Below are positions 1-55,761 of a DNA stretch of 64,000 nucleotides, one piece after another; position 1 is the first letter of the stretch, and each line of letters starts with the position of its first letter. Below the pieces are notes generated by a model, which had not been told where the DNA came from, made no database searches, and worked only from the letters and a program-made list of their open reading frames with translations. Both the position numbers and the translations under genes were made by a program. The stretch is from Haplodiscus bocki (lineage: Eukaryota), in the NCBI GenBank assembly GCA_965655095.1, contig OZ296648.1, positions 5,394,001-5,458,000 on the forward strand, written 5' to 3'.

Positions 1-48
1 GAAAAAGAGAGGGGAACACAGAGATTTGTATATTACAGCAAATTTTTT

Positions 49-3000
49 CTATGGAAAGCCCATTTCAAACACTGGGGCGGCACGTCGATCACGCCCACTC
101 CGACGCGACTTGCCACGAGAAGCCTGTGCTGCCAGAACGGACGCAAAACTTGAATCTCCTCCTAAAGATCGCATCTGTGGATAAGCTGGGGGACTGGACA
201 TTTCAGATATCCGCGGCAACTTCAAGGGGCTCCGAGAGATTTGTCTCTTCCGCTTACTGGGGGAAGAACGAATTTTCCTTGGCTCAGGATGACCAAGAGC
301 ACGGGAAACAACTGGCACATATCAACGAGCTCCTCCTCAACGACATCTGAGATTCTCACCCCTGGCTTTTATGCTGTCTCACTGCGAGGGGTGCCACCAT
401 GATACCAGCGCTCACTCGTGTCTCTGGCAGTGCGACGGTGCAACAAAAGCCGATCCCAGCAGGCGCGCAGATCAGTGATGACTTGGCTCGCATATGCTGA
501 CTCCACCATTCTCCACGGGGCCTAGACTGGACTTGATGTAATGCTATCCGCGATAGCAACAGACTCAGACAACATTGTCAAGCCGGAATCTGAGAATAAA
601 CTTCTCTGTGTGAAGTGCCGGCTCCGAACACAATCCTGCACACGCACTTCTTCTCCTTTGGGGGCGAGACTGATAGGAATTTTTTCGCCACGAGTTGCAG
701 GCCCACGGATCACAACTATCGTCAACTGGATTACCTAAAACAGCAGAATCTCATGAGAAAAAGAAACAACTCTTGGAGGCCAGAACAACATGTTTGATAG
801 GACAGGATACATACTTTGTACAGGTGCTGACGAGCACGGAAATCAGCCTGTGCAGAAGAGAACGACAGAGCGTCACTTTCGTCAGGGCGGCTCCTTGTGG
901 TAGACCGTTCAAGCTGCAGCTGTTACTGCACACAGGACTGGTACTCAGCCCTGCATGCCTCAACTTTGCTCTCCCTGGTCCAACCCTTCTCCAAAAGCCC
1001 ATCCAAGAGCTTGTTAAACAGCTGAAAATGAGCGACGTCATCACCACCTACCACACTTGCAGGGCAGAAGTAGCCCATACCCTGTCCTATGACTAATCCA
1101 GCAGCAACGGTCGACAGACTACAAATCACAAATTCTTCTAGAAGGCGACGGGCATCACAGCAAAACTCTGTCCGTAGGCACTGGCTACCAACTTTGTCCA
1201 GTGCAGTCATCACACGCGAGTGCCGGAGAAAAAGTCTTTCTCATCAATCGCAGGAAACCGCGGGTGATTCGCAACAACGTAACCCACAAGTGGCAATCAT
1301 GAAGTTTTCTTAATGTTCTGCAGCAAGCAGTAGACATATCGTGCCAATTCTCCGAAGGCGAGGTATCTTTGATCTGCTGCAGTGGACGACTGAATAAAAC
1401 TGTTGGCAACTGAAACAGAATTATGTATCATAGACATGGCAAAAAAACCACCACACCCATGCTTTGCTATGATGGAGAAATCCACCCGAAAAAAAATATG
1501 GAAGCATTGTTGAAAGATACTAGTGTGTTCCTATGAAATGAGGAGTAAAAATTTTCCGGAATCGCTACGTGCCCATGGAAACTCAGCAGAAGAATATATG
1601 GGATTACTTACAGATTTCAATGATAAGATGCAGCAGACGCCACTTCATCCACGCCATTTGGTCCAGGTAGAAGAACCCGTCAATCTGATTCTTCCAAACA
1701 TTACAGATACAATAATTGCCGGTATGAAAATACACTAACACAATCGAAACAGGAAGAACTTACCACAAGACTATTGCCGCCCAGATACTCGCAAAGGGAT
1801 TCCGCGAGAACGGTCGATCCGCCGCTGATTGACGCCACCGACACGTCAAGCCACAGTGCACCTATTATTCGACCCAATGCTGAAACTTCTTCATGAAGAT
1901 TGCTGCCGTAGCAATCCAACGTTGCCACACAAGCTCTCCGCAACATTTTTATGTCCCAGGTGCGAAGAAACACCAGCACTTCGTCGCCTTGTTCCTCAAA
2001 CTCGGCGCGGCAGCTCCCGTGTGACTTTGCCCAATTGATGCAGCAAGAAAAACTCCGAGACGACATCCCATTCAGTATGATGGACCGAAGCATGCAACAA
2101 ACTGGATGCACACAGGCTACGTAGAAAATACAGGGCAACTGTAAATACTAACCAAGATCTCGTCGCGTGACCACGTAACATCCACTTTGACACGGACAGC
2201 AGACAAAGTAAACTGCGCCTTGAGCTGGTACACCAGCTCATAACTTCCGCCCGGATGCAGGACTTCAATGAAGGAGGAAAATTTCGCCATAATCCTAAGG
2301 TTCGGGTCCACTGCAGCACTCTCTTTGACAATGACGTCCTCGGAAAAAGGGTACTCCCTGTCTCTCACGACCAAAGGAGCCTTCATTATCTTCTCCCGTT
2401 GTCGCTCCACTTGTTCTGGACTCATGACATTCCCCTCATAATCCAACACTTCCCAGCCTGGCGTCTCCAATCTCAAAAGTTGGTCACAGGGGAAATGTTT
2501 GCTGCCCCGGAAGTGTCGCAAAACTTCATGGTGACCATCAGTCAATACAGAGACGTCCTTGCGCCAAATACGGCAGAAGAAACATTGGGTTTTGTAGCAA
2601 CATCCGTGAGCCCAGTCACAAAAAACTGCCCAAAATCACTGGCCCCAAGTTTTCTTCATTTTGTACGTCCTTTTGCACCGCAACTTTCGCCGGGGCTCAC
2701 CCATGTCCCACTCATCGCCACTTGTGTCACTGGTGTCGCCCAACCGAAGAACAGCACCGGGCGGCTTCTGCTCTACCTGCTCCAACCGGCTCAAGACATC
2801 ATCTAGTCCTGTGAACAGCAAATTTGCGTGAAAGATTTGGCGCATGGAAAGAAATATCAGGAGTGTGACCAAGAAACTTTGGTGAACTACAAACAATACG
2901 AAGAAAATAAAACAAAAAATGACGATGAAAACAAGTAACACTAACTAGTCACAATGGGGTGAAGAAATTATGCCCGCTCCTCAGCACAAATCGCACGACA

Positions 3001-3900
3001 AAAACCGACCAGCTGGTGACCTGTCGCCTTGATGGGCGTGATAGCATGATCGGCGGAAAAGTAGTATAAAACAAAACAACGGAATTGAGGAGCCGCCATG
3101 GAGCGCCACTAAAGAAATCCTCATTTCAGTTGATACACACCATCGTTGAAAGCCTGCTCCAACGACGTTCGACTGTGCTCGCGACTCGGGAAGTCTTTTG
3201 GGTCTGATGCACTTCGCGCTAGAGGCACTAAACGGCGAGATATTCTGGCACTTCTGAATCTCCTCTGCCTCTTCGTTTCAGCCTCTGTCGAGCTGTCCCC
3301 CTCTCCAGAAGCTAGTGGGACTTCCACTGGACTTGAAAACAGCGGAGATGAAAACTGACTCAAACCTCGCCTAATACAAAAGTTAAATTAACTCATAGTT
3401 GACTCACAATCCATGGGAGCATCTACTCTGGCGCCAACACCTTCCTCGCTCAACGTGGTGCGCCCAACCTCGAACTCAGTCCCGGAATAACCCGGAGCAC
3501 AGGAATCACTAATTTCTGGATGAACAGCAGGCTCACCAGATGAATCGAACACTAAAACACAATAGCCCCATGATGCCTTCTTCATGAACAGCCGCGCGCT
3601 GAATACTAGCTTACGGTATACATGAGTGGCCACCATATTATTCCTACACACTAAAAGCTATACAGCAATGAAGACACCCTCTGCCAACGTCTCCACTGAC
3701 AAATTTGCACGTGCCAGCGCATCCGCAAAAGTCCAGCAGACTCATCATCACCGACTGCAGTGATACCGCCCAGGATATCAACAAAACTATCATTGTCATC
3801 AGCTTCTTCTTCCAGAACACAATGACATGCAGCACTCTCCTCAGGACTCAGATGATCCACAAACTCCTGGCCTTCTTGCACAGCCACAGACACACCTGGT
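49..3900 (-). pseudogene. Multi-exon antisense cargo gene of element C; C2H2 zinc-finger protein, hAT-transposase-like (decayed)
   Basis: Chain of minus-strand ORFs (3651-3893, 3388-3651, 3121-3363, 2636-2941, 2117-2545, 1701-2138, 923-1213, 522-725). Zinc finger C-R-I-W(C)-x16-H-x5-H at ~2490-2572. Introns join the ORFs in frame: 814-735 (GTATGT..TTTTAG) gives HLYK|VIQL; 2152-2085 (GTTAGT donor, degenerate CGG acceptor) gives DEIL|SIIL. Homologous to 21900-25730 and 9273-10480. Confidence 0.7.
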
Positions 3901-4039
3901 ACAACACAAAAATTTGAGAATAGACTGGCCGTTCACGCAGTCTAATCAATTGCCAACTCCCACTTCGCAGAGCTTGACATACCCTCAGTGAATAGGGCGG
4001 TCACTTCACCCTCACCGCAAGACCTAGCCATTACAGATT

Positions 4040-4200
4040 TGGTGCAAGACGCGGCTAATGAGCTATTACATGATGGATTTACATAGTTATTCATGAAATT
4101 CCTAATTATTTCGATTTAGGTCAATACTTTGTCTGTCAACAATGACGTCAGCATGCATTTTCAGGGACACATTGAGGAACGATACGCAAATGTTCCTTCG
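4040..4200. promoter_or_regulatory. Putative bidirectional promoter between the antisense gene and the sense ORF3
   Basis: Non-coding block between two divergent ORFs. It is conserved with element A: 4131-4179 GTCTGTCAACAATGACGTCAGCATGCATTTTCAGGGACACATTGAGGAA vs reverse complement of 9130-9178 GTCTGCCAGCAAAAACATCAGCATGACATTTCAAGGATACGTTGAGGAA. Contains TGACGTCA (4143-4150). Confidence 0.45.
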
Positions 4201-4428
4201 ATTTAAAGACTCCATTTGCGAGATTTAATTACATCTCATAACTCCATCTTCAATCCTTACTTCCTAACTTCATCGACGCTGAGCAGGAACGCGGGAAAAT
4301 CAAAGGAAATCCCGTTCGATGAAAAGTGAATTATGATTACCTGAAATACTGATCACTTTCTGATTTCAATTGCTTCCATTCAGTTACTCCAATAAAAGGA
4401 GATTCCTTAAGTTTTTAATGTTTAATGT

Positions 4429-5202
4429 TTGAAGATGGCCTCCAATATGTCAACCAAATCGATTGACTCGGATGTATTTTATGTTGAGCAGTCGTCCAAC
4501 GACCCAAGTCTACCCAAACCAAACACGCCGATTGTCCTCAGCTCCACAGAGTTGTCAGGCAATGATACCCGAGAAATGATATTAATATCATCCATTGCAT
4601 TGCATGAAACGCAGTTTGTGACAATCGACTCTGGTTCGAATGAGCCGACAATGTCATATGGATTTGGACGGCAACTCCCAATTATTCCACCAAGCCTGAA
4701 TGATCTGAATCTGCGGCCTAATCCATTCAACATTCTGGCAACAATGGCGCTGCTAAACCCTACAGGAGATAGAAATGACAATAATTGTAGCCCCCAGTCA
4801 CCGGAGCCATCTGACTTTTCGCCCATCTCAACACGAGCCATGAACCTAAGTACTTTTGATACTTGGGAAACTCCGCATACCACAACGGACGACAACACTT
4901 TCTATCCGGAGGACGAGCCAAAACGAGTACACTGGACTTCTCCCCTGGATGAAACCTTCCATTCGGAAGGCAAACCCAGATGAATCTATCTGTTGTCCAG
5001 TCCATCCCCGCCGTCACCACCTCGCAAGATGCAGTGGAAGTTGGAGATGGGAATGTCCTTTTCAAAAAAAGAGGGAGTGTCACAGCACGTCTGCGAAGCC
5101 TGCCGACTAGTGATTCCCCCAACAAAGGACATTCAATTACCGTCGACTCTACTGAGGACTGAAGACAGTAAGACCATTTTTATGAAGCTAAAAAACCTAT
5201 AA
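4429..5202 (+). pseudogene. ORF3 of element C: Ser/Thr/Pro-rich protein crossing the PPT into U3 (one frameshift near 4980)
   Basis: ORF 4429-4983 plus ORF 4993-5202 (..GMSFSKKEGVSQHVCEACRL..) spans the PPT and LTR start. The VFYVE(Q/H)SS and CEAC motifs recur in element A at 8700-8850. Confidence 0.6.
5064..5077 (+). other. Polypurine tract of element C
   Basis: AAAAAAAGAGGGAG immediately 5' of the LTR start TGTCACAG. Confidence 0.8.
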
Positions 5203-6809
5203 GTTTTATCACTTACATATACCGCATCATATTTCATCAATTGTATTTTAAGGATACGTAGTAGTTACGTATCCACCTAGTACACATATATGTAATCCAT
5301 GCCAACGATACGTAGTAATTACGTATCGTTCCATAGCATGTAGTTCATGTAAAAAGCACGGATCCTATACGTGTAATTCTGAGGAACTGATCCGGATTGG
5401 GACGGGGCAGATACGGAGCAAATGGATATTCATCTACTTCCGTAATGTAGTTTTATGTTATTATTAGGTGGTATTTCTTTATAATTATTCTAACTAGTTT
5501 TTATATAAATCCACCTTTTTAACTGACTGGTGCAGTGAGTAATTTAATCGAACTGACAGTTTCAACAAGTTTTCAATAGCGGTTATCTATTATTACGGAG
5601 CGTGACTTTAAAAGTGAATCTTTGTTCCGTATGTGTTCCGTCGTAACTAATCTGGTAACGTCAGCAGAATTTCAGCCAATCCGCTGCGCTACTATCCTGT
5701 GTCACTTTGGACGGAGACGGAACGATTTCGTAGCCACCTGATTCATTCTCCTCAGTAGTACTGCGGAGAGCAGTGCTACAAGCGGTTACGTGGTCGCTCC
5801 GGATTGCTCCGGCCAAAGCTAGGCCTGAGCTGGCAGAACTCTGGAACGGACTAGGAAAATCCCTAGTTTTGTTCCCATCAAGGGAATTAATCGATGCAGT
5901 ATACGACCACATGAAAACAATAGTTTTTCCAGCTTTTATATGAACTTTATTTTAGGTATTTCATTTATTTTTCGAGGTATTTTTATTAATTTCCTCTGAT
6001 GGAAAACTTCTTTGATCTTTGTTTATGTTATTATTTATTGTGTCGGCGCGGGAATAGCCGCTTTGATGTCCATTTCTGACGGATTGGACTCGTATCCGAA
6101 AAATGGAAAGGAGGACGTCCATGAAGGAAGAAATGGACGGAGAGGTGTTTATTTCCTGCCAGAGTCGGCATTTATCCCTTTATAGATAATATGATTGAAG
6201 TACTTTTCCCTATTTGTACCTTGATTTAGCGTGTAATTAATTACGTTTCCCGCCAAGGAAACGCATAAATAGGAGAAAAGAAAGTACTATTATTATTATA
6301 TAAATTGCAGCCTTTCGGTATTGTACTGAATTTGATATCATTAACTGCTTGCATTTATTGAACCCTTCTCCCTCATAATAAGATGAGATTAACACCTATG
6401 TTTTAAAAAACAAAACTTCAATTCAGTCTTCACAGCTGACAACACTTTTCCTTCAGTATCATGGCAACTATGGGAAATAAGAGAAAATTAGCGGCAGTTT
6501 CGAGAGAAACACCTGAAAACACAAGGAACAGTCAGTCACAGAACACACTTGATCAAGAAATGGCTCAGGATTATAGCTCCCAGGTTTCTGAAGAGATCGA
6601 AGGGAGAGTAACTAAAAAAATTTCAAAAGAATTCAGCTGGACGGAGTCCCGCATTTTGGCTGCTTTGTCTAAACTTGTTGAATTTCTTCTGATCCCGCAA
6701 GTTCGGACTTGTTCCATAGCCGTTCCAGGAACATCCAGGAACAGCGACTCATAAAACCGGGAACCCATTGGTGATCGTTCCCCAAACGATCCCTGTCCCA
6801 AAGTGTTTT
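5078..6809 (+). repeat. 3' LTR of element C, left part (continues at 15525-15586)
   Basis: Begins with TG right after the PPT, is homologous along its length to the element A LTR, and contains the gag N-terminal ORF starting at 6461. Confidence 0.75.
6461..6809 (+). pseudogene. gag: gag N-terminal segment encoded inside the LTR of element C
   Basis: MATMGNKRKLAAVSRE..QVSEEIEGRVTKKISKEFS.TESRIL is homologous to the N-terminus of element A gag (14106 downward). Premature stop at 6752-6754. Confidence 0.7.
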
Positions 6810-8749
6810 TGTCATAGTCCCTTTCTGTACCAGAGTTATGTTCCATCTGACCGTGGAAGAGACTTGCTTCAGGATGAGGATCATTCTGGGAGTTGTCCTC
6901 ATTTGTTCCCTGGTTTATACCTGATGCGTTCCGGGTGGGCTCCGGAGTGGTTCCGGAGCCACTTGGTAGTAGTGGGTTCATAAAAAAATCATCGAGCCGC
7001 GCTAGTGCACCTAGGATGCGGCTTTTGTTCTGCTGAACTCCTTTGACAACCTCTTTGTGACCCTTCCCTCAATCTTCTCGGAAACTTGAGTTATGTAGTC
7101 CTCCTGCGATCTAGGAGCGCTTGAGTTTTGTGCCAAGTTGCTCCTAGGATGCTCTTCACAATTTTCCTTATTTAATGCTGCCAATTTCCTCTTGTTTCGA
7201 GTTGTCATCTTTTACGAGAAAAATAAAGATCAGTAAGTAATACTTGATTATTTTTCTGAAGGAGAAATCATATTCGGTCTTTTTAACAGTTTTTATCGAC
7301 ATCGAAGGGAAATACTATACTGGAATATTATCATCAGTATATTACAATAAATAAAAATTGTGTCCTCTGTACCTTCATTTCTCCTATTTATACCTTTTCC
7401 TGGCGGGAAACATAATTGTTTACACGCCAAGTCAAGGTACAAATAAGGAAAAGTACTGTCTAAAAGTAAAACATCAAAGTTAGAAATGCCGACTCTGGCG
7501 GGAACTAAACAACCTTTCCATCCATCTCTTCCATCATAAGACGCGCCTTTTCCATCTTCCGACAGAAAATGGACGGTCCTAATCCGTCGGAGATGAACAT
7601 CAAAGCCTTTATTCCCGCGCCGACATGTTGTTTACAGTCTTATTAAACTAATTTCCTTAATTGGGAAAGGAAAATAAAATGAGTAAAATGAAAAAAAGAA
7701 GAAATAAAATAAAATACAAAATTCATGACTTCATTCTAGAAACACATTAAATCATCATTTCCATGTTCATTTCATCATCACTTGATTATTTAGTCTTTTG
7801 GAAATGAGGAGAAACTAGTATCACTACTAGTTTACTCCTCGTTCCGACTAGTGGCTACTAGTGGTGTCCGGAACAGCTCCGTAGCCACTAGTAGTATTAG
7901 TTGAATTTCAGGTAGATACTAGTGGTATCCGGAACAGTTCCGTAGCCACTGGTAGCATTCGCTTCAATTCAGTCTGCTACTAGTGGTATCCGGAACAGTT
8001 CCGTAGCCACTGGTAGCATTCGTTTCAATTCAGTCTGCTACTAGTGGTGTCCGGAACAGCTCCGTAGCCACTAGTAGTACAAGTTAATTCAGTCAGCGTT
8101 ACTAGTGGTATCCGGAACAGTTCCGTAGCCACTGGTAGCATTCGCTTCAATTCAGTCTGCTACTAGTGGTATCCGGAACAGCTCCGTAGCCACTAGTAGT
8201 ACAAGTTAATGCAGTCAGCGCTACTAGTGGTATCCGGAACAGTTCCGTAGCCACTAGTAGTACTAGCTTCAATACAGTCAGGCGTGCTCAAAGTAGGAGT
8301 GAATACGGAGTCACTCCGTATTCACCATAGCACTGCAGCACAGCATAGCTATAAGAATGATTGTGACGTCACCAGACTAGTAGCGACGGAACGCGTACGG
8401 AACAAATATTCACTCCGAGAGTCAATTTGATAGCACTTTAGCACAGTAAGCTAAGTTAATAACACTCAAAAGGTGGATGTAAATCAAATAAAATGAATAA
8501 GTTATAACAAATTATAGCACCTTTTAGAATGAAACGCTCTGTGAATATCCCTTTGTTCCGTAACGGTTCCGTATTAGTCCGGATCAGTTCACTAGGGTGA
8601 TCCGTATATGATACGGATCAGTAACATGAAAATTAAGAGAAATATGAAATATTGTGTTTTATTTACAGCTCATCAATTCCCTTGAGAGTCTGGGAATGTT
8701 CTTTTCTTCTGCAGCTCTAATCCGCAGGCTTCACAAGCATACTGCGACA
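6810..8749 (-). repeat. 3' LTR of element A (1940 bp)
   Basis: Direct repeat of 13707-15524. Starts TGTCGCAG after the PPT and ends GACTATGACA. Confidence 0.9.
7850..8280. repeat. ~61-bp tandem repeat (7 units) inside the 3' LTR of A; each unit contains an inverted repeat
   Basis: Unit CTACTAGTGGT(A/G)TCCGGAACAG(T/C)TCCGTAGCCACT(A/G)GTAG plus a variable tail; arms CTACTAGTGG and CCACTAGTAG. Confidence 0.9.
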
Positions 8750-8930
8750 CTCCCCTTCTTTAAGAAAGGACATTCCACGGTCAATGTTTTTTGCCTGTTG
8801 TCATTGGGCTCTGCTCTTGACGAATGTTCCACATAGAAAACACAATTGTCACGATGTAGCCAATCACATGAATTGCATCAACTCGTAAATGAAGATTTTT
8901 GTATGTTGATAGAATCCATTGAAAAAACCA
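8700..8930 (-). pseudogene. Internally deleted ORF3 remnant of element A
   Basis: DNCVFYVEHSS (~8818-8850) matches IDSDVFYVEQSS of C. The downstream GGAATGTCCTTT..PPT..TGTCGCAGTATGCTTGTGAAGCCTGC (VSQYACEAC) matches C 5050-5103. Confidence 0.55.
8750..8761 (-). other. Polypurine tract of element A
   Basis: AAAGAAGGGGAG abuts the 3' LTR start and is absent in front of the 5' LTR. Confidence 0.85.
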
Positions 8931-9272
8931 AGGAGAACTTGTGAAGTGGCGGGGCAAATACGGAAACATTCCGTAGCTTTCTTGTCAGGCAGGAATTCCT
9001 TTGCAGTGTGAGTCGTGAAAGGTAAAAGAATGAAGTTAAGTGACATTAAGTGTAGTGTGATGTAAAGGATATTAGTCTTTAAACAAGACAAGGAATTGAA
9101 TATTTGAAATGAGGAAATTTTGAGTCCCATTCCTCAACGTATCCTTGAAATGTCATGCTGATGTTTTTGCTGGCAGACACATCCATCAAAATTAGATAAT
9201 ATAGGGGTAAAAGATAAAGTATGTAAATACACAGTTTAATAACTTGATAGTCTAATAGCCCCGTGCTTCAAT

Positions 9273-10480
9273 TTGAACAAGAAGAAAATTTTGTCAGTCA
9301 ATACAAAGGAGAGTGTTGTGGGTGTAGAAGACGTGGGCTCATCTCAGGGTGAGTTCGTCACTCAGGTTGCTGGAGCTGGCGAGCGAGAATTTCCAGTAAT
9401 TCCCGTGATGTCCCGGTTGAGAAGTTGCAGAGAAGTGAAGAAAAGGCGAGGTTGGAGAATCCGGAGTCAGTCCGTATCGAAACTGCATGCGTTGCTGCTG
9501 ATTTGGGTGTCCAGTACCCTGTCGTTTCCAGAGACTTTATCAAGGATGGGGATAAACGTCCCATGCCTGGAGAATGTGCCACTATAACTGCTGATGAGGC
9601 GGATGATTATGTGGATGTCGTTGGGAGCGGTACCCCGGTGCATAGTTATATGGAATCTGAGGGGTTCACCTTCAGAGAGTCCGTGAGCAATGCTTTCTTG
9701 AAAGACTTAAGCGGGGTTCTTGATACTTCTGGCATTCCCTCGTTAAAATTTTTAATTAATCTTATCTTCACTCTGCTTTAGCTTTTCTCGGTAGACTTTA
9801 CATATTCGCGACTATGTAAGTCTTTTTAAGCTAGTTATATCCGTGCGCACTATATCCTGAAGATGGCATCATGAGGTTGTTGGATTTCAGTGTATGGATC
9901 ATCTGGAGGGCCTGCTGGTCGTCCGCAGTGCTCCCGGGCAGTTTCCACTGAACTGTGTGGATCGGAATTTGACGTTGGTGGGCGACCTCTGAAAATGGGG
10001 TGCGGAAGAGAGCTTCCAGGAAAGGCGGCCTCATGGATATCCTTGAGAGTTGATTTTCTTCACATATAATTCAAATTCTCCGTTCATGTGCATTCATGTT
10101 TTAGCAACGTCTTTATGTGTAGGTGCTAATGAGGAGAGGCCTGTGAGATTTGGCCAGGAGAAATTTTCTACTGGGGTTGAGAGCGAGAGCCAGATTCGAC
10201 TGAAGAAGGCGATTGTAAGGAGACGTTTGGCTCCTTTTTCAAAATGCCGCATTGTCAAGAAAGATCCCCTTTGTTCCAGTTTTGATCGGAGCCGCACCTT
10301 CTTGAGGCGAGTTCTTGATGAGGGTAATGCTTTGGTTTCCTTGTGGAGATTTCTAGTATGATTCCTCATTTGATCCTAATTGCACCTTGTTTCCGTGTTA
10401 TGGACCAGTTTACTGCAGATCCTGCTTCTACGAGCACAAATGTCACCGGGCACCAGGTCGTGTTTAATAAGTGTCCGCTC
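9273..10480 (+). pseudogene. 5' part of the antisense cargo gene in element A
   Basis: SGGPAGRPQCSRAVSTELCGSEFDVG matches C SGEPAVHPEISDSCAPGYSGTEFEVG. STGVESESQIRLKKAIVRRRLAPF..SRTFLRRVLDEG matches C STEAETKRQRRFRSARISRRLVPL..SRTSLEQAFNDG. TGHQVV matches C TGHQLV. Candidate acceptor TGTGTAG|G at ~10122. Confidence 0.6.
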
Positions 10481-10559
10481 GGGTAGTTTTCGTGGATTAC
10501 TGGGATGACTCTAGTTTCCATACTACTTTTTCCCTAATTTTGGTAATGGTCAAATTTGG

Positions 10560-10850
10560 GGGTTCCGGCAGTACTCCGTACTCCTTTCCTGTTTATCGTC
10601 ACTAATCCATGGGAACTAGGAGATTTTTAGTAGCGTTCCTAGTCAGTTCCTCATTTTGTCGTGATAACAGCAGCTTGTACTAGGAAACTTCCAGGAGTAC
10701 TCCAAGGTGACTCCTCATTTGGTCGGGCGTCATCAGGGGGAAAACTAGGAAAGTTTCCGGACCACTCCTAGTTTCTGACTCATTCAGTTGGACGTTTCGG
10801 GGCAAACTAGGAAAGTTTCCGTATCACTCCTGGTTCAATCCTCATTTGGT
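10560..10850. repeat. Degenerate ~63-bp tandem repeat (4-5 units) in the internal region of element A
   Basis: Recurring ACTAGGA(A/G)A..TT...A..(A/T)CC...CTCATT at ~10615, 10679, 10744, 10807. Confidence 0.6.
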
Positions 10851-11577
10851 AGTCTGCTTCAGAGGTGGGAGGGAGTATCCAGTTTCTGCCATTCTCTGGT
10901 CACCTTGTTTGTGTCGTTTCAGTTGCACACAATTTCACCGAATTGGTCTAGGAGCGTGCTGATTATGGCTATTTGGCATTCGGGGAGCTCTCCCACTTTG
11001 TGTATTGTTTGCTACAAAAAGTGAAGCGGAGTAGCGATTTGCCAGTCATTGAGAAGTGGGGTGCGAGAAGAAGTAGTCGTGATTGCCGTAGTGCCCCAGT
11101 TTTCCAAGGGGGTTACCAATTACAAATTAATTGTTTTTATGTATAGACTTCTCGCATTTGAAAATTAGTAAAAGTTTGTATGAATTCAATTAGATTAGCC
11201 GTCAATTTTGCATGGGTAAAATGAGTAGGAAGCGTGTCGCTGTACAGGAAATATCCTCAAAACACAAGGAATATTTGTGTGTATTCCGTATTGTACCCGG
11301 AATCAAATTTTGGTGGATTTTCCGGAATGGTTCCGGAAACGCTCCGGATACCATCTAGTGATATATTAGGGCAGTGTGATGAGGATCCAATTTCCAGTAT
11401 CTGCAAGTGCCAAAAATTGTATTGTTCCATCTGTTGTGCTCGGTAGTTATTTCAGAACGTCTTCTAGGCGCTTGAAAGAATATATAGATTTTCCGCGTAT
11501 CATTTCCATAACACGTTCCTAGGGTTTCCGGAAAGTGTACGTATCCGTTCCATAGCACATACTAGGACAGGTTCCGA

Positions 11578-12360
11578 AATTCGATGTCTGTAATTGTCGT
11601 TGGAATTTAGCTTCAGGGTCTGACGTAGACCATTTTTACGCTTTGGGTGGTTGATCGAATTAGGGTTATGATGGTCCAAATTTGTGTCCCTCGTGTAGCT
11701 AGTGTTACGATCCGTATCCATTCCGTCATCTATCCCTCCTTTTCATGAAGACTTTCTGGGCAAAATTCTGGTGTTGTGTCTGGTATACTACTAGTCAAAT
11801 GGACTGTCTCAACAAACTGTTTTTGAAATCCAGAGGAACTTACAGTTTTGAAGAACTAGGATAGAGGACAGTGGCAAATAGAAGTCGTTCATCCCTCGCC
11901 TCTTTTAAGATTTTCCGAAATAGTGAAATTCTTTTTGTGAGAGGGGAAAATTGTCATCTCCGTCACATGTGAGCTGTGATATCGTCATTCGTGTCTAGGG
12001 TTACGTTTTGACTGTTCTGGGAGTGATTGAGGCACAGTACTGGTTTGCTCCTAGTTTGATTTTCTATTCCGTAGCGGTTCCGGATTCTGAAGTGAGATTC
12101 TTTTTAATGGCGACGTTTTTGATTCTAAATCATCTCTCTGTTTTAGTTCAGGTGTATGTGTGTTTTAGTCAGTTTCAGCAGTAGAGTTGTTATAAATATT
12201 AGCTAACTTGAACTATCCACAGATGTCTCCAGAAATTGCTGCCAGACAACAACTGGGATTACTGGAATTTTCTTCTGGTGGTCTCCGGTCTCTCACTCAC
12301 AGTTCCGGAGCGAAAATGTGGCATTTGTAGTTAAGATATTGGGTTGTGGCCCGGACACAA
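11578..12360 (-). pseudogene. Remnant of pol in element A (extreme C-terminus recognisable; PR, RT, RH and IN missing)
   Basis: C-terminal motif HPKRKNGLRQTLKLNSNDNYRH (~11580-11650) is homologous to the element B pol end HGGKYNQRLNANSNFSDS*RY (~25886-25950). Only ~0.8 kb separates it from the gag end. Confidence 0.55.
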
Positions 12361-12416
12361 CCAGTTATACTGTTCTGTGCGTCCTGTTGAAAATGTCCAC
12401 TTTGTTCTTCCGGTTT

Positions 12417-14106
12417 TCACTTCCAGGGAAGTGGCCTGTTTGCTGCATTGGCTCCAACATAACATCTCTCTGCGGAGTGGTTCGTTTTTCCACATGTCTC
12501 ACAAGGAGGATGAACTGTTTCTGGCTTCGTTTCAGCTCTGTTACTGTTTTTGAAGTTGTTGTGGTCATTATTATTGGTGTTGTTGTGTGGGATATAGTTA
12601 TTGGCGTCACTGTTTTTGTTTCCAGGATTATTTTGATTATTTTCACTTTCTTCTATCTGATTTTTCAACAGGCGACACTGATTTCTATAATGCCCTGGTT
12701 TTCCGCAGTGGTGGCACCTTGGTTTGGATCTGTCATCCTTAGCGTTTTTGAGTTGTTGGCTCACAGTGTTTATCTGTAGCTAATCAGGGGCTTCGAAACC
12801 ATTCAGCTCTAATTCCCTTTCCAGGTGTGTGACAATCTGTTCATACGTGCCATTCTCCAGATGGGCCTGATTTATTGCTTTCTTCAGGTCTGGTGGCATT
12901 TTGGCATATATGAATTGTTCAATGATGGCATGAGCAGCTATTCCGAATGCCTCTTTGGCCAGTTTTTGAAGTTCGTCAAGAAACTCTACTAACTTTTGCT
13001 TTGCTGGATTGAAGACGAGTTTCTGGAATTTGTGTTTTGCTGTTGCCATCGATTGGGGTTTTACATACTTCCTTCGGAAAACTGCTAGAAGTTTTCCCAG
13101 ATTCTCTCGGGTTGTGCCATTAATGTTTTTAAAGGTTTGTAGGGCATCTCCCCTCATGAGAGAATGGAAGTAGTTGATTCTGTCATCTTCGGCCAGTTGG
13201 TTATGGATTTTGAGACTCGTCTGAAAAAGGTCTTCAAAAAGCTCAATTTTCTCAGTTTTCCTGTCAAACGTGGGCATCGTTGTGGTTAATGATTTTGGCA
13301 GTTTGGAAATTCTGTTGATATTATTGTGAAAGTTCGCAGAATTGTTGTTATTTGCCAACTGTTGAAGGGCCAACAAAATTTGGTCTGCTTCGATCGTCGC
13401 AGGTGTGTTTTCACTGCGGAATTGTGGTTGACCGGTAGAGCGGTTTTTCTTCTGCTTCCCTGAATATGTACTAGGGGGCAGTATGTGACTTCCTCGTAAA
13501 CTCCAGTCATATCGTGGCAATTACCAATCCGTTTTGTGGCTCCTGTCACCCTGTCATGATCGTAGGCTCTCTCTCTGTGTGTTCCTGTTACATTTCGTGG
13601 CGATTCCTATTCATTTCTGTAGCTCCTGTCACCATGTCATAGTCCCAGAGACTCTCTTCCTGAACTGCTCTCACCATGTCGTGGCGTTCTGTAACTCCTG
13701 TCACCATGTCATAGTCCCTTTCTGTGCCAGAGTTTTGTTCCCTCTGACCGTGGAAGAGACTTGCTTCAGAATGAGGATCATTCTGGGAGTCGCCCTTATT
13801 CGTTCCCTGGTTTATACCTGATGCGTTCCGGGTGGGCTCCGGAGTGGTTCCGGAGCCACCTGGTAGTAGTGGGTTCATAAGAAAATCATCGAGTCGCGCT
13901 AGTGCACCTAGGATGCGGTTTTTCGTTCTGCTGAACTCCTTTGACAACCTTTTTGTGACCCTTCCCTCAATTTCCTCGGAAACTTGAGTTATGTAGTCCT
14001 CCTGCGATCTAGGAGCGCTTGAGTTTTGTGCCAAGTTGCTCCTAGGATGCTCTTCACAATTTTCCTTATTTAATGCTGCCAATTTCCTCTTGTTTCGAGT
14101 TGTCAT
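12417..14106 (-). pseudogene. gag: gag of element A (starts inside the 5' LTR; capsid-like domain and two CCHC zinc knuckles; 2-3 disruptions)
   Basis: ORFs 13588-14106, 12780-13520 (MPTFD..FEDLFQTSLKI..YFHSLMRGDALQTF..) and 12417-12764 with CHHCGKPGHYRNQC and CETCGKTNHSAERC. In-frame TAG at 12780-12782. Confidence 0.9.
13500..13706 (-). repeat. Primer-binding site plus five degenerate tandem copies (tRNA-Leu-like PBS array, in frame with gag)
   Basis: TGGTGACAGGAG at 13706-13695 lies directly after the LTR end, followed by TGGTGAGAGCAG, TGGTGACAGGAG, TGTAACAGGAA, GGGTGACAGGAG and TGACTGGAG. Each copy is preceded by an LTR-end-like GACA/GAAA/GATA. Confidence 0.75.
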
Positions 14107-15524
14107 CTTTTACGAGAAAAATAAAGATCAGTAAGTAATACTTGATTATTTTTCTGAAGGAGAAATCATATTCGGTCTTTTTAACAGTTTTTATCGACAA
14201 CGAAGGGAAATACTATACTGGAATATTATCATCAGTATATTACAATAAATAAAAATTGTGTCCTCTGTACCTTCATTTCTCCTATTTATACCTTTTCCTG
14301 GCGGGACACATAATTGTTTAAGCGCCAAGTCAAGGTACAAATAAGGAAAAGTACTGTCTAAAAGTATAACATCAAAGTTAGAAAAGCCGACTCTGGCGGG
14401 AACTAAACAACCTTTCCATCCATCTCTTCCATCATAAGACGCGCCTTTTCCATCTTCCGACAGAAAATGGACGGTCCTAATCCGTCGGAGATGAACATCA
14501 AAGCCTTTATTCCCGCGCCGACATGTTGTTTACAGTCTTATTAAACTAATTTCCTTAATTGGGAAAGGAAAATAAAATGAGTAAAATGAAAAAAAGAAGA
14601 AATAAAATAAAATACAAAATTCATGACTTCATTCTAGAAACACATTAAATCATCATTTCCATGTTCATTTCATCATCACTTGATTATTTAGTCTTTTGGA
14701 AATGAGGAGAAACTAGTATCACTACTAGTTTACTCCTCGTTCCGACTAGTGGCTACTAGTGGTGTCCGGAACAGCTCCGTAGCCACTAGTAGTATTAGTT
14801 GAATTTCAGGTAGATACTAGTGGTATCCGGAACAGTTCCGTAGCCACTGGTAGCATTCGCTTCAATTCAGTCTGCTACTAGTGGTATCCGGAACAGTTCC
14901 GTAGCCACTGGTAGCATTCGTTTCAATTCAGTCTGCTACTAGTGGTGTCCGGAACAGCTCCGTAGCCACTAGTAGTACAAGTTAATTCAGTCAGCGTTAC
15001 TAGTGGTATCCGGAACAGTTCCGTAGCCACTAGTAGTACTAGCTTCAATACAGTCAGGCGTGCTCAAAGTAGAGTGAATACGGAGTCACTCCGTATTCAC
15101 CATAGCACTGCAGCACAGCATAGCTATAAGAATGATTGTGACGTCACCAGACTAGTAGCGACGGAACGCGTACGGAACAAATATTCACTCCGAGAGTCAA
15201 TTTGATAGCACTTTAGCACAGTAAGCTAAGTTAATAACACTCAAAAGGTGGATGTAAATCAAATAAAATGAATAAGTTATAACAAATTATAGCACCTTTT
15301 AGAATGAAACGCTCTGTGAATATCCCTTTGTTCCGTAACGGTTCCGTATTAGTCCGGATCAGTTCACTAGGGTGATCCGTATATGATACGGATCAGTAAC
15401 ATGAAAATTAAGAGAAATATGAAATATTGTGTTTTATTTACAGCTCATCAATTCCCTTGAGGGTCTGGGAATGTTCTTTTCTTCTGAAGCTCTAATCCTC
15501 AGGCTTCGCAAGCATACTGCGACA
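13707..15524 (-). repeat. 5' LTR of element A (1818 bp; 5 units of the 61-bp repeat at ~14750-15056)
   Basis: Direct repeat of 6810-8749. The 122-bp length difference equals two repeat units. Confidence 0.9.
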
Positions 15525-15586: not shown

Positions 15587-15971
15587 AAGGGGATAGCTTT
15601 TGAGGAATGACATCAATAATTTAGAGATTTTAGAATGATTATATGAACCATATTTGTTCCACAATATAGATCGCTGGTTTATACGCTCAACTTCAGTTTT
15701 TGGAACAGTTTCAGTTCGCAAACCCCCAAATGCATCACTGTGAAGACAAAAACGGTTTTATAAAGTCAAAAGTCTGGTTTTCATTTTTTCATGGAATCAG
15801 GGCAACAATATTATGGGCACTTGTGGATTCAGACTGACTATAATCTGGACCATAAATGTCCAGACTATGGTCAACCCGAAACATAAACATTTATGACTAA
15901 ACTATGATCAGCCTGGAATCATGCTCTGTTTATTATGACAGAGTATGATCAGCCTGCTCTTGTAAGGGAGG

Positions 15972-16162
15972 TCAACCCGGGGTATTCAATTCTGATCTAA
16001 TTCAAGTTTACCATGGTAAGTTTGATTTAGATCAGAATTGAGTGCCCCGGGTTGAGCATAAATCCAGAAGCTCGTGTGGCCACTTATAAACTGAAAATCA
16101 CAACACTGCAGTGGTGTGATTTTCAGTTTCTAAGTGGCCACACGAACTTTTGAAATTATGCT
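15972..16162. repeat. Two abutting long palindromes (15972-16055 and 16055-16162), foldback/MITE-like
   Basis: TCAACCCGGGG..CCATGG..CCCCGGGTTGA and AGCATAA..GTGTGGCCACTTA..CTGCAG..TAAGTGGCCACAC..TTATGCT. Confidence 0.85.
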
Positions 16163-16290
16163 ATATTTAGAGTTCTTACACTTTTTTAAGCATTCATTTA
16201 ACATTTCTAAGTTAATTTTTCAACATTAACCAAGAAATAGTGCAATATTTGAACCTGAATCAAATATAACGCCTCGGGACAAAAATCTTT

Positions 16291-16374
16291 TGCTACCACT
16301 GGGATTCGAACCCAGGCGGACTTTTGTCCATTTGGATCTTATGTCCAACGCCTTAACCACTCGGCCATAGTAGC
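16291..16374 (-). tRNA. trnL-TAA: tRNA-Leu(TAA), variant or possible pseudogene (U33->A)
   Basis: GCTACTATGGCCGAGTGGTTAAGGCGTTGGACATAAGATCCAAATGGACAAAAGTCCGCCTGGGTTCGAATCCCAGTGGTAGCA has a 7-bp acceptor stem, A and B boxes, a long variable arm and discriminator A. A TTTTT terminator lies just downstream. Confidence 0.85.
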
Positions 16375-16739
16375 TTAAAATTTGGTTAGGTCAATCAATG
16401 TTCCAAATCATATATCTGAATCTCATTATACATTTTACATCATTCAGTTACGCATTTTTTGAGACCAGTCGAATTTATGCACTTTACGTAAAGAGAATTA
16501 TGAGCACACTCAAAAGCAATTGTGTGCTGAAAACGTACGTTTCAAATTTTAATAAAAGTTGAAGATATACTTAAAGAAAATACAGTAAGGTAAGAAAATA
16601 TTAGATCCCTTTGTTGGGAGTTTATTGGTAACTACAATTGGCAAGATCGAGATTTCGCTTACCAGTGTTGTCGAACTGATACTCAGGTGCACTTAAATTA
16701 GAGCTGGTACCTTCCATTGGGTAATAATTCGGATGTAAT

Positions 16740-17236
16740 GCTGTTGCCATTCCTCGGACAAACCGAGCCAAATCCTGTAGCTGTCTCGTGAGGGGTGCAA
16801 GGAAACATTTAATCTGCTCATCGACTTCCTCTTGAGTTATTGTGTGGATTACAGGCCCTTCATCTTCGTTAGCCTCAGGCGTTCATGACGGGACTACCTT
16901 CGGAGCTGCTGTTTTCGCTCATAACTGTTTGTCAAGCGAGTATCCGTGCGCGTTACGGCCCGTGTCGGTATCCGCCCTTGGGTAATGATTCGGATGCGAT
17001 GCGACCAATAATATTTGGACGAGCCGAGTCAAATCTTCTGGCTGTCTCGCGAGTGGCGCGATGAAGCTCTTGGTTTGTTCATTTACTTCTTCTTGCGTTA
17101 AAGTGCAGACTTCGGGCGCTTCGCTTTCGTTGGTGTGAAAGTTAGGTGTTGAGGCCGGGAAGTCGCCATCATCCAAGATTTCAACATTACGAGTCTCATC
17201 ATTTCTGTCGTGATCAACGTTTAAATCTATTAGGTT
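16740..17236 (-). pseudogene. Fragment of a related retroelement ORF, with an internally duplicated motif
   Basis: NLIDLNVDHDRNDETRNVE resembles the LTR-encoded RIDLNFDRYRKDETCKV of element B. TLTQEEVNEQTKSFIAPLARQPEDLTRLV is repeated as TITQEEVDEQIKCFLAPLTRQLQDLARFV. Confidence 0.45.
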
Positions 17237-17270
17237 GGTAATATAGGTGACCAGTGGGGTTGTGGCGACT

Positions 17271-18990
17271 TTAGTTTGCAAGATTCTTTAGAATAGATGT
17301 CGGTGCATTTTGAGTTGACGTTCCTGGTTTATGACTTTCGTCTGTGGAATCCTTACGAGTTTCAGTTTTGTGCATTTTGGTTCTGTTAGCCGCATTTGAG
17401 CCATTCCAGCACATATCAGCCGTATGATTACTTCTCTGGCAGTGCGGACAGGATAGGAATTTTTTTGACTTTTGTTTTTCGGTATTTTGCTTTTCATATT
17501 GTCGTTCCTGCTTCTTACGAATGCGTTTGAGGCATTCTTTGATAACATGGCCTGCTTTTTTGCAGTATCGGCATAATATTTGTAGTTTTTCTGAGTTCTG
17601 TGGTTGGTTTTGCTTTCTTACTATTTTTGTTGTAGTTGCCATGGTGGTTATTGCTAGTTCTCAATCTGTTTCCAACGCGATAATTTCAAGTTCACGCTCT
17701 AGGTGTGCAAAAATTCGAGCATAGATGGCATTTTCTAGAAATGCAACGTTGATTGATCTTTTAAGGTGTGGGGTTGTTCTGCCTATGGTAAACTGACTAT
17801 CATTTGTTTTGCAAGAGATCCAACAGCTTGCTCGGCACATTCATTTTCTTCATCGAGGAAATCTGGTATTGATTTCGTGTTTGAATCGAAAGTGGGTTTA
17901 TGCCATTTGCTGTGGCTTGTGATTTGTGGTCTAACGTACTTTCGCCAGAATTTGAGGAGTACAAACTTGATTTTTCGTTTTTTTTGTGGCATTCATGTTT
18001 CTAAATGTTTGTAATGCCTCTTTCGGAAGTTTTGAATGGAAATGGTTTATTTTCCTTGATTCTGACTTCTCGGGTTGCTTTTTCAGGATAGTTTGAAAAA
18101 AGTCTTCGAACATGTCAAATTTGAATTTTTACCATCCAAGATCGATATGTTTGTTGTTGTTGTCTTCAATATTGCTGAAGACTTTTGTAGTCGTTGTTGG
18201 GATGCAATGCCTGCGAATGCAGCAGCAAATTCCCTGACGGGGTTGCCCGATTCTGAGTTTTATCTCTGCGGTGTTTGTTCACCATTGTCAATGTGCTGTA
18301 GGATGCAATGTGTGTTGCCACATTTGGCGATTGTGTAAAATGATGAGGCAATGGGTTGTTTTGAGTTTGAATTCGTCCTTTGAAATAATCAGGGATAAAG
18401 TTTTGTGGGGCAACAACTTCTGTCATCATTTGATGAGCGTCTGCTCGGCGGTTATAGTTAGGTCCTTTTACCGTATAGTCGGTATCTTTTTATTTTGCAA
18501 CCTTACAAGTCTCATCCTTTCTATATCGATCAAAGTTCAAATCTATTCGACTAGAGCCCGACATGAGAGGGGTTTCTTTAGCATTCAATGTGAAATCCCC
18601 CTGATCATTTATTTGGACCAGATTGTTGGGTCCCCTTTCTGATGACTCGGTGATAGATCTCACGGCTATTTCATCTCTCGGCTCTACCAAATTGTTCACC
18701 ACCATCAAAATTGCGCCAAACATTACACTTTTGACAGCCATAACAGCTCTATCAACCATATTTCTGATTTCGTCGACAATTTTTTTTCATTGACTCGATC
18801 CTGACATACACCATCTCCGTTAGCTGTAATCCCTTCGAAATTATTAGAACTACTGTTGGGTTGGGATTCGAAGATGTCATGTCCTATTGCACCTGCATTG
18901 GTATCATTACCAATGGCAAAATCGTTTACAGTTTGGTTCAACTGACTAATCTGTCTTTTGTATCGGAGTGTCTTCTTTCCTTTAGAATCT
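17271..18990 (-). pseudogene. gag: gag (element B family) starting inside the downstream LTR; frameshifted
   Basis: FEDFFQTILKKQPE..KINHFHSKLPKEALQTF, RKYVRPQ, and knuckles CRYCKKAGHVIKEC and CPHCQRSNHTADMC. PBS-like TGATGACAGAAG at 18428-18417. Confidence 0.85.
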
Positions 18991-20285
18991 ATGTTGTGTA
19001 AAAATGTAAGAAGGACTCAAAGTCAAAATCAACAGAGTGAAACACCAATCAGAACTATCAAATTTTATAATTGATGTGAGTTATGGATACAAAGATCAAT
19101 TGTTTTGCCAAATGACCAAATTGAGTCATCAACTGTCGAGTAGAATAGGCGAGGATAATAATGATTTTCCTTTTCTTGACTTCGGGCAAAGGGGAACTGA
19201 GGCTCTTCTTCTCTTCTCGTCACCCAAGCAAGTTCTCCCGGAGGTGACGAGGTATGTGAAACTATAACTAAAAGTGTAACTTTAAATGGAAAACTTCCGC
19301 CAAAATCATGACGTCATATTTACATGTTTTTAAAAAAAATAGACTTTCTAAATAAAAGTCAACAAAGAAAAGAATAGTTCTTTTGCATGACATTCAAAAA
19401 ATAAAATAACGGCTGTAAGGGTGATATTATATGTAGATGAATGCATTTCATCTAATTTAGATGCACAAATAAAATTGTGTAAACGGAATAGCGTCAAAAT
19501 TTAATATGTATGACATACTTATGACATAGCAGTAAATGAGGATGAGATAGGGCGGTTATTACTTTTTTCAAAATATGTAGTTTGACGTACGTTTGACTTT
19601 AGTCTTAAATCCTTTACATTAATTCCCTGTGGTGTAAATAAAGGGAAATACTTTTACATCAGTTTCACAATTAATATATAGATATTCTTATGTTAATTCA
19701 TCATCACTGGAAGCATAAAATTACTCTTGGCTATTTTTGGTACCGCCGTCATGTTTAATGCTGCTTTACTTTACGTCAATTTCCTGGTCAGTGACGTGAT
19801 TTAGACACATATTCTGAGTAGTAGTGCGGCGGAAGAAGTAAAAGCCTGGCTGACGTCAGCTACGTCAAAGTCACGTCAATAGCACTTTTTATGACATGAA
19901 AAATTGAAGGCGCCTGTTCGTTGTCAATAGATAATCAGTTTAGCCTTAGCCGACCAGAATTTGACAGAGCAATGAACAAACTGATAATATTGTACTACAC
20001 TGAATTTGTTTCCCTCTTTCCGCTCCTGTGTGCTTCTTATTGTTAATATTAGTAGGGATTTACAACTCACATTAAACATAACTTATAAACTTCATAGCCT
20101 CGTAAAATATTAGGTTCTCCTATAGGTACAAAAGGACTTGTAGTTTTAGGAATCTGTGCATGTGTTCAAACGTGTACCTTAGTTTTAATCTTGAAACAGA
20201 GGCAAAAGTTTTCCTTGAGTTTCCTGACAGGTTCCTCCGTTGTTGATTTAAATTATTATGCCGTCACAGGCAGCAGCTTGCGGCA
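18429..20285 (-). repeat. Downstream (3') LTR of element B
   Basis: Homologous to 33447-35326. It ends just before a PBS-like sequence and contains TGACGTCA at 19309 and 19851. Confidence 0.65.
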
Positions 20286-20999
20286 CTCAGCGGGGTACAA
20301 AAGTGACCACACCGGACTGTAAACCGTCTAGAAATGCCTGTCGTTTAATGTGGCAGTTTCTGATCGTTTTTCCAGGCTCAGCTGTGCGGTGTATATAATC
20401 GGCGACTGTTTCCTTGAGTACCTGGGCGTATGGTTTGCCACATACTGTTCATCTTGTAACTTGTTTGTTTATTTCTGAGCAGGCATTTACTGCACGCTCT
20501 TGTAGATCTTGTACTACCGAATTGATAACTGGTATTGAATGAGAGTTTTTCGCGGGGGAGTATCTGTCAATTTATATGGTCGGATATTATTTGTCTGACC
20601 TCTGTTTGACGGCACTGGTGATTCGGATGAATCTGGCATTGGTTATTTTTGTCGACGTATTTCTGTAAAGTGGGGTCCAGTTTGAGAAAAGTAACTTGTG
20701 GTTGCCTCATATACGTTGTGTAAATGTTTGGTCAGTTGTGATCAAGAATTTGTTGTCATAGATAGGGATGGTTCGGTCGGATCGGTGTCATAAGTTGAGA
20801 TTGTGACTGCGTCTGACAGTTCATTAGGACAGACCAGAAATTGATTCCATGTCTCATTTTGGGTGTTATCATCTTTCGTCAAGTACTGGTCAGACATAGT
20901 GTATTGTGACGCGGTGTCTTCATTGCTTGACAGATATATGGGGTCTGGTTGCATGGTTTCATCTTCATCCATCACGACTTGGGTTGTTTCTCCAGCCAT
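20250..20999 (-). pseudogene. ORF3 of element B: acidic Ser/Thr-rich ORF running towards/into the 3' LTR
   Basis: MAGETTQVVMDEDETMQPDPIYLSS..AVTISTYDTDPTEPS occupies the same position and orientation as ORF3 of C (..FVTIDSGSNEPT). Confidence 0.45.
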
Positions 21000-24800: not shown

Positions 24801-25730
24801 TTTGGTTGGAAAATTTCCCTTCAGTTATGTGTTTTGTGACATGTTTCGTTTCGCCGCAAGCAAATAATTCCTAAATTATGAGTGATGTGAGTGTGCTTAC
24901 CACCGGAGGATGATTTGGAAGTCGTCCACAATTTATATTTTGCTGACAAGACATTGATGTGCTTGAGTGGCTTCTAACGAAAAACGCAATTCCGGAATTC
25001 TGTTTTGCGAGTTGCAAAATCTACTGTGGATGTGTTCTAGTGTTTGTGGGTGGGTAGCTAAGGAAATACGCACAGTTCACATCGAGGAGTACCTGCATTT
25101 TGTCAATGATTTGAGGTTTGCATATGAGGATGAGGACGGCGTTGGACCTGAAGTAGGGGATAAGATTTCTCTTTTGTCTGGTTGTCCCGAGTTGAGTCGT
25201 GAAACGAGGACTATGACTTTGTTCCGCATTAGATGTTTGTTTTTTTTTAGCATGGAAAAATGGATTTGCCTCAAGTCGACTTTGGGTCAACGACTGGGGT
25301 TGGTGACGGATCGGTTGTTTTGAGGCTCTTCGAGCCCTTGACGAAATTATTTGCTTTGAAACAATGGCGAGTTTAATTTATTTATCGATGCCTATTCAAT
25401 AATTGAACTTTTGGTGCGTTTGGAGACTTTTGCTGGAATTGCCGTTGAACCTGGTTATAGTTCGTGCACTTTTGTGGATTTCTTTGACACAGACGAAGTT
25501 TTAAAGGAACCTTTGAATTGCTATAAGGAGATACGAGTAGCTGCTGCTGTTGGAAGTGATACGCTAAATGTTTCAGCCTCCGAAGTTCTGTGCGTTGAAA
25601 GTTCTTTGCCAGCTCAACATCCAAAGTTTAATGTCAGTTAAGTCAATTCAACGGAGTCTGTGACGACTTTAGTGAAGAAAATCAGAAGTACTCGGAGTCG
25701 TTGTGGTGCCGGTTCTTCAAAATGGTGAAC
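21900..25730 (+). pseudogene. Multi-exon antisense cargo gene of element B (C2H2 zinc finger, hAT-transposase-like; decayed)
   Basis: ORFs 22555-23445, 23792-23980, 24453-24797, 24967-25323 and 25411-25641. Zinc finger CKSC-x16-H-x5-L(H) at ~23532-23610. Intron 23963-24098 (GTAAGT..TTCAG) and a further donor GTAAGT at 24783. GWVAKEIRTVHIEEYLHFV..GPEVGDKISLLS matches C KGWTRESKVEACRAEYQSCVQ..RPDESDALSFLS. Confidence 0.7.
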
Positions 25731-31307: not shown

Positions 31308-31391
31308 TGCTACCACTGGGATTCGAACCCAGGCGGACTTTTGTCCATTTGGATCTTATGTCCAACGCCTTAACCACTCGGCCATAGTAGC
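31308..31391 (-). tRNA. trnL-TAA: tRNA-Leu(TAA), identical copy of 16291-16374
   Basis: Same sequence, including the CATAAGA anticodon loop and downstream TTTTT. Confidence 0.85.
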
Positions 31392-51300: not shown

Positions 51301-51454
51301 TGTCTACCAAAAATTTCTTGTAAAGGTACACGCTTCACTTTTGATTGTTACTCTGCTAATTCATCCAGTTCTCTTAAAGCATCTTAAATTTCAACTGAAA
51401 AAATCATTTTTCCAATCTCTTGACAACGATTCGTTTCTGATTTAGCCTGTCTAT

Positions 51455-55664: not shown

Positions 55665-55761
55665 TGTACCAGAAGAATGAGATCCGCTAAAACTGTCGTT
55701 AACAGCCCTTGATTTTCTTTATATAGCATTCAATAAACTTGCCAGCAAACATTTTAGGCTG

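Follow-up and report, generated by a model that had tools for sequence, protein, structure and literature searches.

Does an intron at the same place in two highly divergent antisense genes point to long vertical inheritance of a spliced, functional gene inside a retroelement? This question is raised by a 64,000-nt stretch of the Haplodiscus bocki genome (assembly GCA_965655095.1, contig OZ296648.1, positions 5,394,001-5,458,000 of the forward strand), which is referred to as the window and whose numbering is used throughout. It contains three copies of the gene: C on the minus strand, B on the plus strand, and A, of which only remnants (9109-11143, plus strand) are left antisense in a gag-only element. 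Both C and B are decayed; C carries frameshifts and an internal deletion, B several frameshifts and stops. The coordinates and letters that had been given for C and B in the original prediction were confirmed.

The family to which C belongs is very large: 10,090-13,207 contigs per run aligned to window positions 1-5200. Two protein searches for relatives of C gave 157 and 1555 matches, and 120 of the 157 were combined with the best 150 of the 1555, the latter all being close family members. Among the resulting 270 proteins, 173 reach the Trp that precedes the first intron, and the intron counts given below rest on these 173. Eight related DNA loci from metagenome contigs, including the 11.8-kb locus L001, were used to read introns at the level of single bases. 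Copy B was missed by BLASTP with the ORFs of C and was detected by profiles only. The B junction exon, used as a query for homologues, gave 0 matches at E ≤ 0.01 among 12 candidates and hence no intact B-family protein. No relatives of the gene were found among viral contigs, and a sequence-cluster look-up with 10 family proteins returned no names.

The upstream coding segments of C (2944-4013, minus strand, as for all parts of this gene) are conserved with L001 and are acidic and rich in Arg and Ser. The zinc-finger exon (2153-2808) is represented by 157 homologous ORFs; its 5' boundary was placed by means of an AG at 2810-2809, and frameshifts are located near 2641 and 2583. It is separated by intron 1 (2085-2152, 68 nt, phase 0) from an exon with a predicted RNase H-like fold (1764-2084), which has a large internal deletion compared to its relatives. 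Intron 2 (1694-1763) has the donor GTAAGT at 1763 and, in C, a non-canonical acceptor that was placed by eye. Intron 3 (1410-1611, 202 nt, phase 1) has the ends GTAAGT...TTTCAG, and intron 4 (735-814, 80 nt, phase 0) the ends GTATGT...TTTTAG. The last two exons (49-1409) comprise a helical region and a low-complexity basic tail ending in MGFP. In the related loci, introns 2, 3 and 4 have a GT donor wherever they were found by patterns, and AG acceptors where these were located.

For intron 1, the evidence was read base by base. In C, the Trp codon at 2173-2171 opens the sequence W-S-R-D-E-I-L. It is followed by a 68-nt gap, which runs from the donor GTTAGT at 2152 to 2085, and then by S-I-I-L. 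The acceptor at 2085 had been called degenerate; it is indeed non-canonical in C, whereas all eight relatives have an AG. In these eight loci, intron 1 has a length of 65-78 nt, has the ends GT...AG and blocks read-through, in four cases because it is out of frame and in four by an in-frame TAG at the acceptor. Its interior has diverged, with a core identity of 0.43-0.62 across 20 distant locus pairs. A Val (GTN) directly follows position W+6 in 154 of the 173 ORFs, as a GT donor requires. The downstream exon is in frame in 32 of these ORFs and in a shifted frame in 88, and the remaining 53 were not classified by the patterns. Direct joining of the two exons (to S-I-I-L) occurs in 0/173 ORFs; with this result and the blocked GT...AG segments at 8/8 loci, ordinary in-frame coding sequence was rejected as an explanation. 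On the other side, an uninterrupted frame across intron 1 is present in 21 ENA ORFs, which counts against an intron. The peptide encoded by the intron in these ORFs is only 26% identical in the most distant pairs, compared to 68% and 52% for the flanking exons. Intron 1 is thus a feature of the C family and not peculiar to copy C, and from these features we infer splicing of the antisense gene.

The spacing of the zinc finger is identical in both copies, as had been claimed, and follows the pattern C-x2-(C/W)-x16-H-x5-(H/L). The motif reads C-x2-W-x16-H-x5-H in C (2575-2495) and C-x2-C-x16-H-x5-L in B (23532-23612, plus strand). A C2H2 ancestor had been deduced from this complementary damage. 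The ancestor was indeed of the C2H2 type, but the argument from damage is not needed: the relatives carry an intact C-x2-C-x16-H-x5-H motif, with the two Cys residues present in 175/191 and 177/192 cases and the two His residues in 171/202 and 166/203, so that the ancestral finger can be read directly.

In B, the Trp at 23942 opens the sequence W-S-K-E-L-I-S, which is followed by a 136-nt segment from GTAAGT at 23963 to TTCAG at 24098 and then by G-I-L-H. The finger of B was detected by the C-family profile with 19.4 bits, compared to a maximum of 3.7 bits in 40 shuffles. A spliced, frameshift-tolerant alignment of B to 369 profile positions reached a score of 25.4, whereas 25 shuffles gave -73.6 +/- 7.4; the score dropped to -12.8 when introns were forbidden. 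Given no hint, the alignment selected the intron 23963-24098. The same intron was chosen under three of four further penalty settings, the fourth retaining the donor and shifting the acceptor to 24040, and it was also obtained with L001 as a second query. The junction required an end-to-end alignment, as a local HMM and local spliced alignments recovered the finger only. B is identical to the C family at 67 of the 369 positions, i.e. at ~18%, in agreement with the low identity noted before, and the colinearity is nearly gap-free over several hundred residues. Judged by these alignments, B and C are homologous. Furthermore, in other B-like contigs the exon ends at the same point and is followed by a GTAAGT or GTAACT donor; in some of them the match is confined to the part from 24094/24098 onward or to the part up to 23969, and the sequence becomes unlike at the borders of the intron. 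Within this intron, the stretch 23977-24020 is conserved at ~84-93% in several other contigs and is possibly an intronic signal.

The two introns had been placed at exactly the same position. Both are of phase 0 and both follow six codons after the Trp, as predicted; the exact coincidence was not confirmed. The distance from the Trp to the Arg of a downstream Y-P-R motif is one residue shorter in B. If the gap is set before the junction, the best register scores 17.7 bits and puts the B intron one codon after the C-family site; if the gap is set after the junction, which keeps the same codon, the best score is 13.1 bits. The +1 register is favoured by a Ser that is encoded by AGT in B and by TCC in C and L001, so that this residue may not be homologous. 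Moreover, B is decayed, and the one-residue indel can therefore not be placed firmly. The intron position is common to B and C to within one codon, being the same or the adjacent one. Other introns differ. B has a predicted 69-nt intron (24579-24647, GTAAGT...TAAAG) at a site where the C family has none, and its C-terminal segment (25045-25245) crosses the site of C intron 4 ungapped in an open frame, i.e. intron 4 is absent from B. A donor at 24783 in B lies about three codons after the second donor of C. The segment of B from 24783 to ~25040 is not reliably alignable, and the comparison covers the sites outside it and thus not C introns 2 and 3; among the introns testable in this way, one is common to B and C.

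The carrier of the gene was identified from L001. An intact RNase H-integrase frame comes first in this locus, and the gene lies behind it in antisense orientation; further on there are a small sense ORF and an LTR, after which gag and protease of the next element appear. Pfam matches of L001 are RT_RNaseH, Integrase_H2C2 and rve. The order of domains is that of Ty3/Gypsy elements, with gag before protease and RNase H before integrase (in L001, and for RNase H-integrase in the B element); the RT core was seen only as decayed fragments. C and L001 are 69.7% identical over 3474 nt, in a colinear stretch that runs from the gene across the LTR. The C element (5064-6056, plus strand) has a polypurine tract at 5064-5077, an LTR that opens with TG at 5078 and extends to ~6040, and, at 6041, a PBS-like motif. 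An LTR with both signals is also present in the A element, and a polypurine tract was not found in the B element. B lies antisense directly behind the integrase of its host element, which is 35-55% identical to L001 in Pol and ~30% in Gag; the RNase H and integrase of this element (26300-28086, minus strand) are decayed. The antisense slot between pol and the 3' LTR, which is seen directly in L001 and B and follows from the layout in C and A, is identical in all four elements with readable context.

Several further features of these elements were observed. The small sense ORF (4426-4983, plus strand; 3594-4325, minus strand, in L001) is located between the antisense gene and the polypurine tract, is rich in Pro and Ser, and is 58% identical to its L001 counterpart; it matches no Pfam family. 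The elements, B included, are head-to-tail tandems sharing an LTR; in C, A and L001, the LTR after the antisense gene leads into a PBS-like motif and a new gag (5078-6805 and 6810-8749; 1-3600 in L001). The PBS-like motifs at 6041, 7625 and 14523 start with TGT instead of the usual TGG. In B, a 4.5-kb LTR-gag block (15754-20290) is repeated at 92%, and both copies of the block contain a tRNA-Leu(TAA)-like gene downstream of gag (16291-16374 and 31308-31391, minus strand). Element A (8749-15524, minus strand) has gag and no pol, the remnants of the antisense gene, and a 61-bp tandem array in its LTR. Elsewhere in the window, a tandem duplication of ~3.67 kb with 98.7% identity (47407-54751) and a long array that is built from a 9-bp unit and contains higher-order repeats (55700-64000) were found.

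Selection on the gene was assessed from seven of the eight loci; L002, which was not parsed, was excluded. In 20 of the 21 locus pairs, pN is 0.14-0.34 and pS 0.73-0.86, and the one close pair has a dN/dS of 0.41. Synonymous sites are saturated between subfamilies while pN is low, which is the signature of purifying selection. Together with the GT...AG ends at 8/8 loci, these values bear out a selected, intron-split antisense gene inside a retroelement. As judged from sequence, they also support long inheritance of this gene within its carrier, although on other grounds than originally proposed. The argument comes from the saturated synonymous sites and from the same slot and orientation in two distant lineages (Pol identity 35-55%), far more than from a single intron with a possible one-codon offset.

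Two alternatives question what B and C have in common. The introns could have been gained independently at adjacent codons of a gene that is itself homologous and inherited. The +1 register is better by 4.6 bits, the other differences between B and C imply that introns are gained and lost, and an accidental pair within one codon has a chance of roughly 4-6%, all of which fits such a gain. However, the +1 register leans in part on a Ser-Ser match between codons of different classes (AGT and TCC), the one-residue indel is not firmly placeable in the decayed B, both introns share phase 0, and the chance of an exact match by accident is only ~0.3-0.5% in the same rough estimate; we regard independent gain as unlikely. 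The other alternative concerns the gene as a whole: B-type and C-type elements might have captured related transposase genes separately, so that the likeness would stem from the donors. With an identity of only ~18% (67/369), differing sets of introns and, in one alignment, an Asp of B near the second catalytic position, this scenario has some appeal. It would have to explain the same site and orientation in related Gypsy lineages, the nearly gap-free colinearity over several hundred residues and the identical spacing of the finger, and it appears rather improbable to us. A single capture is the reading that we prefer.

Which gene was captured? A hAT transposase was first suspected from motifs that we presumed to be characteristic of this superfamily, before any fold search. 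An AlphaFold model of the family protein P0003 (15 sequences) has a mean pLDDT of 37.5 and contains three strands and helices in RNase H order. With this model, Foldseek placed Hermes transposase on ranks 1-11, six of these at E ≤ 0.001 with a best E of 3e-4, at TM-scores of ~0.17; residues 221-344 of the model align to residues 141-263 of Hermes. VIA-align agreed with the fold class (RNase H-like) of this low-confidence model but listed Hermes only on rank 16 (Z 5.1, rmsd 5.4, 112 residues), below other RNase H-like and actin-like folds. For the C-terminal model, Foldseek yielded nothing at E ≤ 0.001 and VIA-align matched generic helical bundles alone, so that hAT is neither found nor excluded for this part. 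Pfam scans of the antisense gene yielded neither a hAT family nor BED, and only weak C2H2 matches at E 0.07-0.17. PDB sequence searches with the proteins of the gene gave 0 matches, and the ESM Atlas contained no usable match. We regard descent of the gene from a hAT transposase as likely.

The catalytic register of the family relative to Hermes is our assumption and was set by means of presumed hAT motifs. In this register, Asp occurs at the candidate catalytic positions in 7/76 (E260), 1/97 (G320) and 6/97 (G321) sequences, and at E262 it does not rank within the five most frequent residues. Glu and Gly predominate in the family at the positions deduced for both aspartates. The RW dipeptide is present in 0/23 ORFs that span the site. 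The residues essential in Hermes are D180, D248, R318, W319 and E572, according to the accessible text of PMC6027215. As regards E572 and the C-terminal dimerisation domain, six ORFs have an E-rich motif after intron 4, and neither Pfam nor the fold searches gave a match. The catalytic aspartates and the RW motif are predicted to be lost, and the gene would not qualify as an active hAT transposase.

These data also bear on two other origins. A hAT DNA transposon nested in the retroelements, moving or once moving by itself, would account for the hAT-like fold and for the introns, since intron-containing transposase genes are usual in DNA transposons. Searches of three regions for terminal inverted repeats bracketing C, B or A found none beyond chance-level matches, and colinearity between L001 and C extends past the gene across the LTR (69.7% over 3474 nt), for which reasons a free hAT element was rejected. 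The predicted loss of the aspartates and the same antisense slot in 4/4 readable elements likewise speak against it, and we consider such a nested transposon highly improbable. Alternatively, the captured gene might have had an RNase H fold but a source other than hAT, either another DDE transposase or a host gene. The low confidence of the model leaves room for this idea, as do the placement of Dom34, pantothenate kinases and others above Hermes by VIA-align and the generic helical bundles matched by the C-terminal model. Against it, Hermes alone passes E ≤ 0.001 in Foldseek and gives the longest of the VIA-align alignments listed (112 residues). The succession of a finger, the start of an RNase H fold and a long helical insertion moreover agrees with the hAT layout described in the available part of PMC6027215. 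A non-hAT source seems doubtful on this balance.

The reading that we consider reasonably probable as a whole is that a conserved, likely spliced gene, of which C and B are decayed copies, occupies the space between integrase and 3' LTR of Ty3/Gypsy elements in antisense orientation. It would stem from a hAT transposase that an ancestral element captured once. The catalytic aspartates have presumably been lost, and the protein likely serves the element in the nucleus as a DNA-binding accessory factor. A retroelement is copied from its sense-strand RNA. As the splice signals of an antisense gene are not recognised on this strand, such introns persist through every retrotransposition cycle. A promoter of antisense orientation close to the 3' LTR would yield a spliced mRNA, and the encoded protein would keep the finger and the transposase scaffold while being unable to cut DNA. 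It may bind the DNA of its own element, most likely in the LTR region, and thereby regulate transcription of the element or protect it against silencing. The common ancestor of the B and C lineages would already have had the intron behind the Trp, which may since have shifted by one codon, and the other introns would have been gained or lost. We also considered a bolder version, which we judge quite unlikely: a Gypsy lineage would have acquired, long ago, a hAT transposase gene together with its introns, and the non-cutting protein would recognise the element's own DNA and steer new integration next to existing copies. Such targeting would explain why a second primer site and/or gag comes after the LTR behind the gene in 4/4 elements read (C, A, B and L001); recombination between LTRs explains the tandems as well. 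If targeting were true, a DNA transposase would have become the targeting factor of a retroelement.

The gene itself is the main finding, and the intron match is a supporting detail. Within a class I element, a gene of probable class II transposase origin has persisted under selection in lineages with a Pol identity of only 35-55%. As its introns ride on a strand that is not read, the family offers a natural system in which gain, loss and sliding of introns can be followed in thousands of copies. A literature search, which covered mostly open texts and left aside supplements and Repbase entries, did not turn up any publication that describes an antisense gene of hAT origin in LTR retrotransposons. 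PMC12477816 treats DNA transposons, and such a gene is not described in the part of its text that is available.

The closest known arrangement is found in plants, where antisense ORFs between pol and the 3' LTR have been reported (PMC7264820; PMC11963269, in its accessible text). They are without similarity to other transposable elements and of unknown origin (PMC7264820). The gene described here resembles them in its slot and orientation, in being kept across families, and in a proposed nuclear, DNA-binding regulatory role. It differs from them by at least four predicted introns, the word "intron" occurring 0 times in the available text of PMC11963269, and by its C2H2 finger and a candidate donor (hAT). 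The TRP28 domain of Retand (PF04195) had no match in three Pfam scans. The hAT transposases would thus be a candidate donor for antisense accessory ORFs, whose origin and role are called unknown in reviews (PMC7264820 and, as far as its text is accessible, PMC11963269). With Hermes and other hAT transposases (PDB 4d1q, 8sjd, 2bw3), which are the best Foldseek match, the gene has in common an N-terminal zinc finger and a core of predicted RNase H-like fold with a helical region behind it. In contrast to these enzymes, the catalytic aspartates and the RW motif are predicted to be absent, terminal inverted repeats are lacking, the ends carry additional low-complexity segments, and the carrier is a retrotransposon. 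A third comparison leads to the retroviruses HTLV-1 and HTLV-2, whose HBZ and APH-2 are spliced antisense regulatory genes from the 3' end of a retroelement with demonstrated transcripts (PMC10186651, in its available portion). Both are of the bZIP type, overlap viral sequence and have no relationship to transposases, unlike the gene presented here. Common to these viruses and the present elements would be an antisense regulatory gene at the 3' end of a retroelement, the splicing of which is deduced from sequence in the present case.
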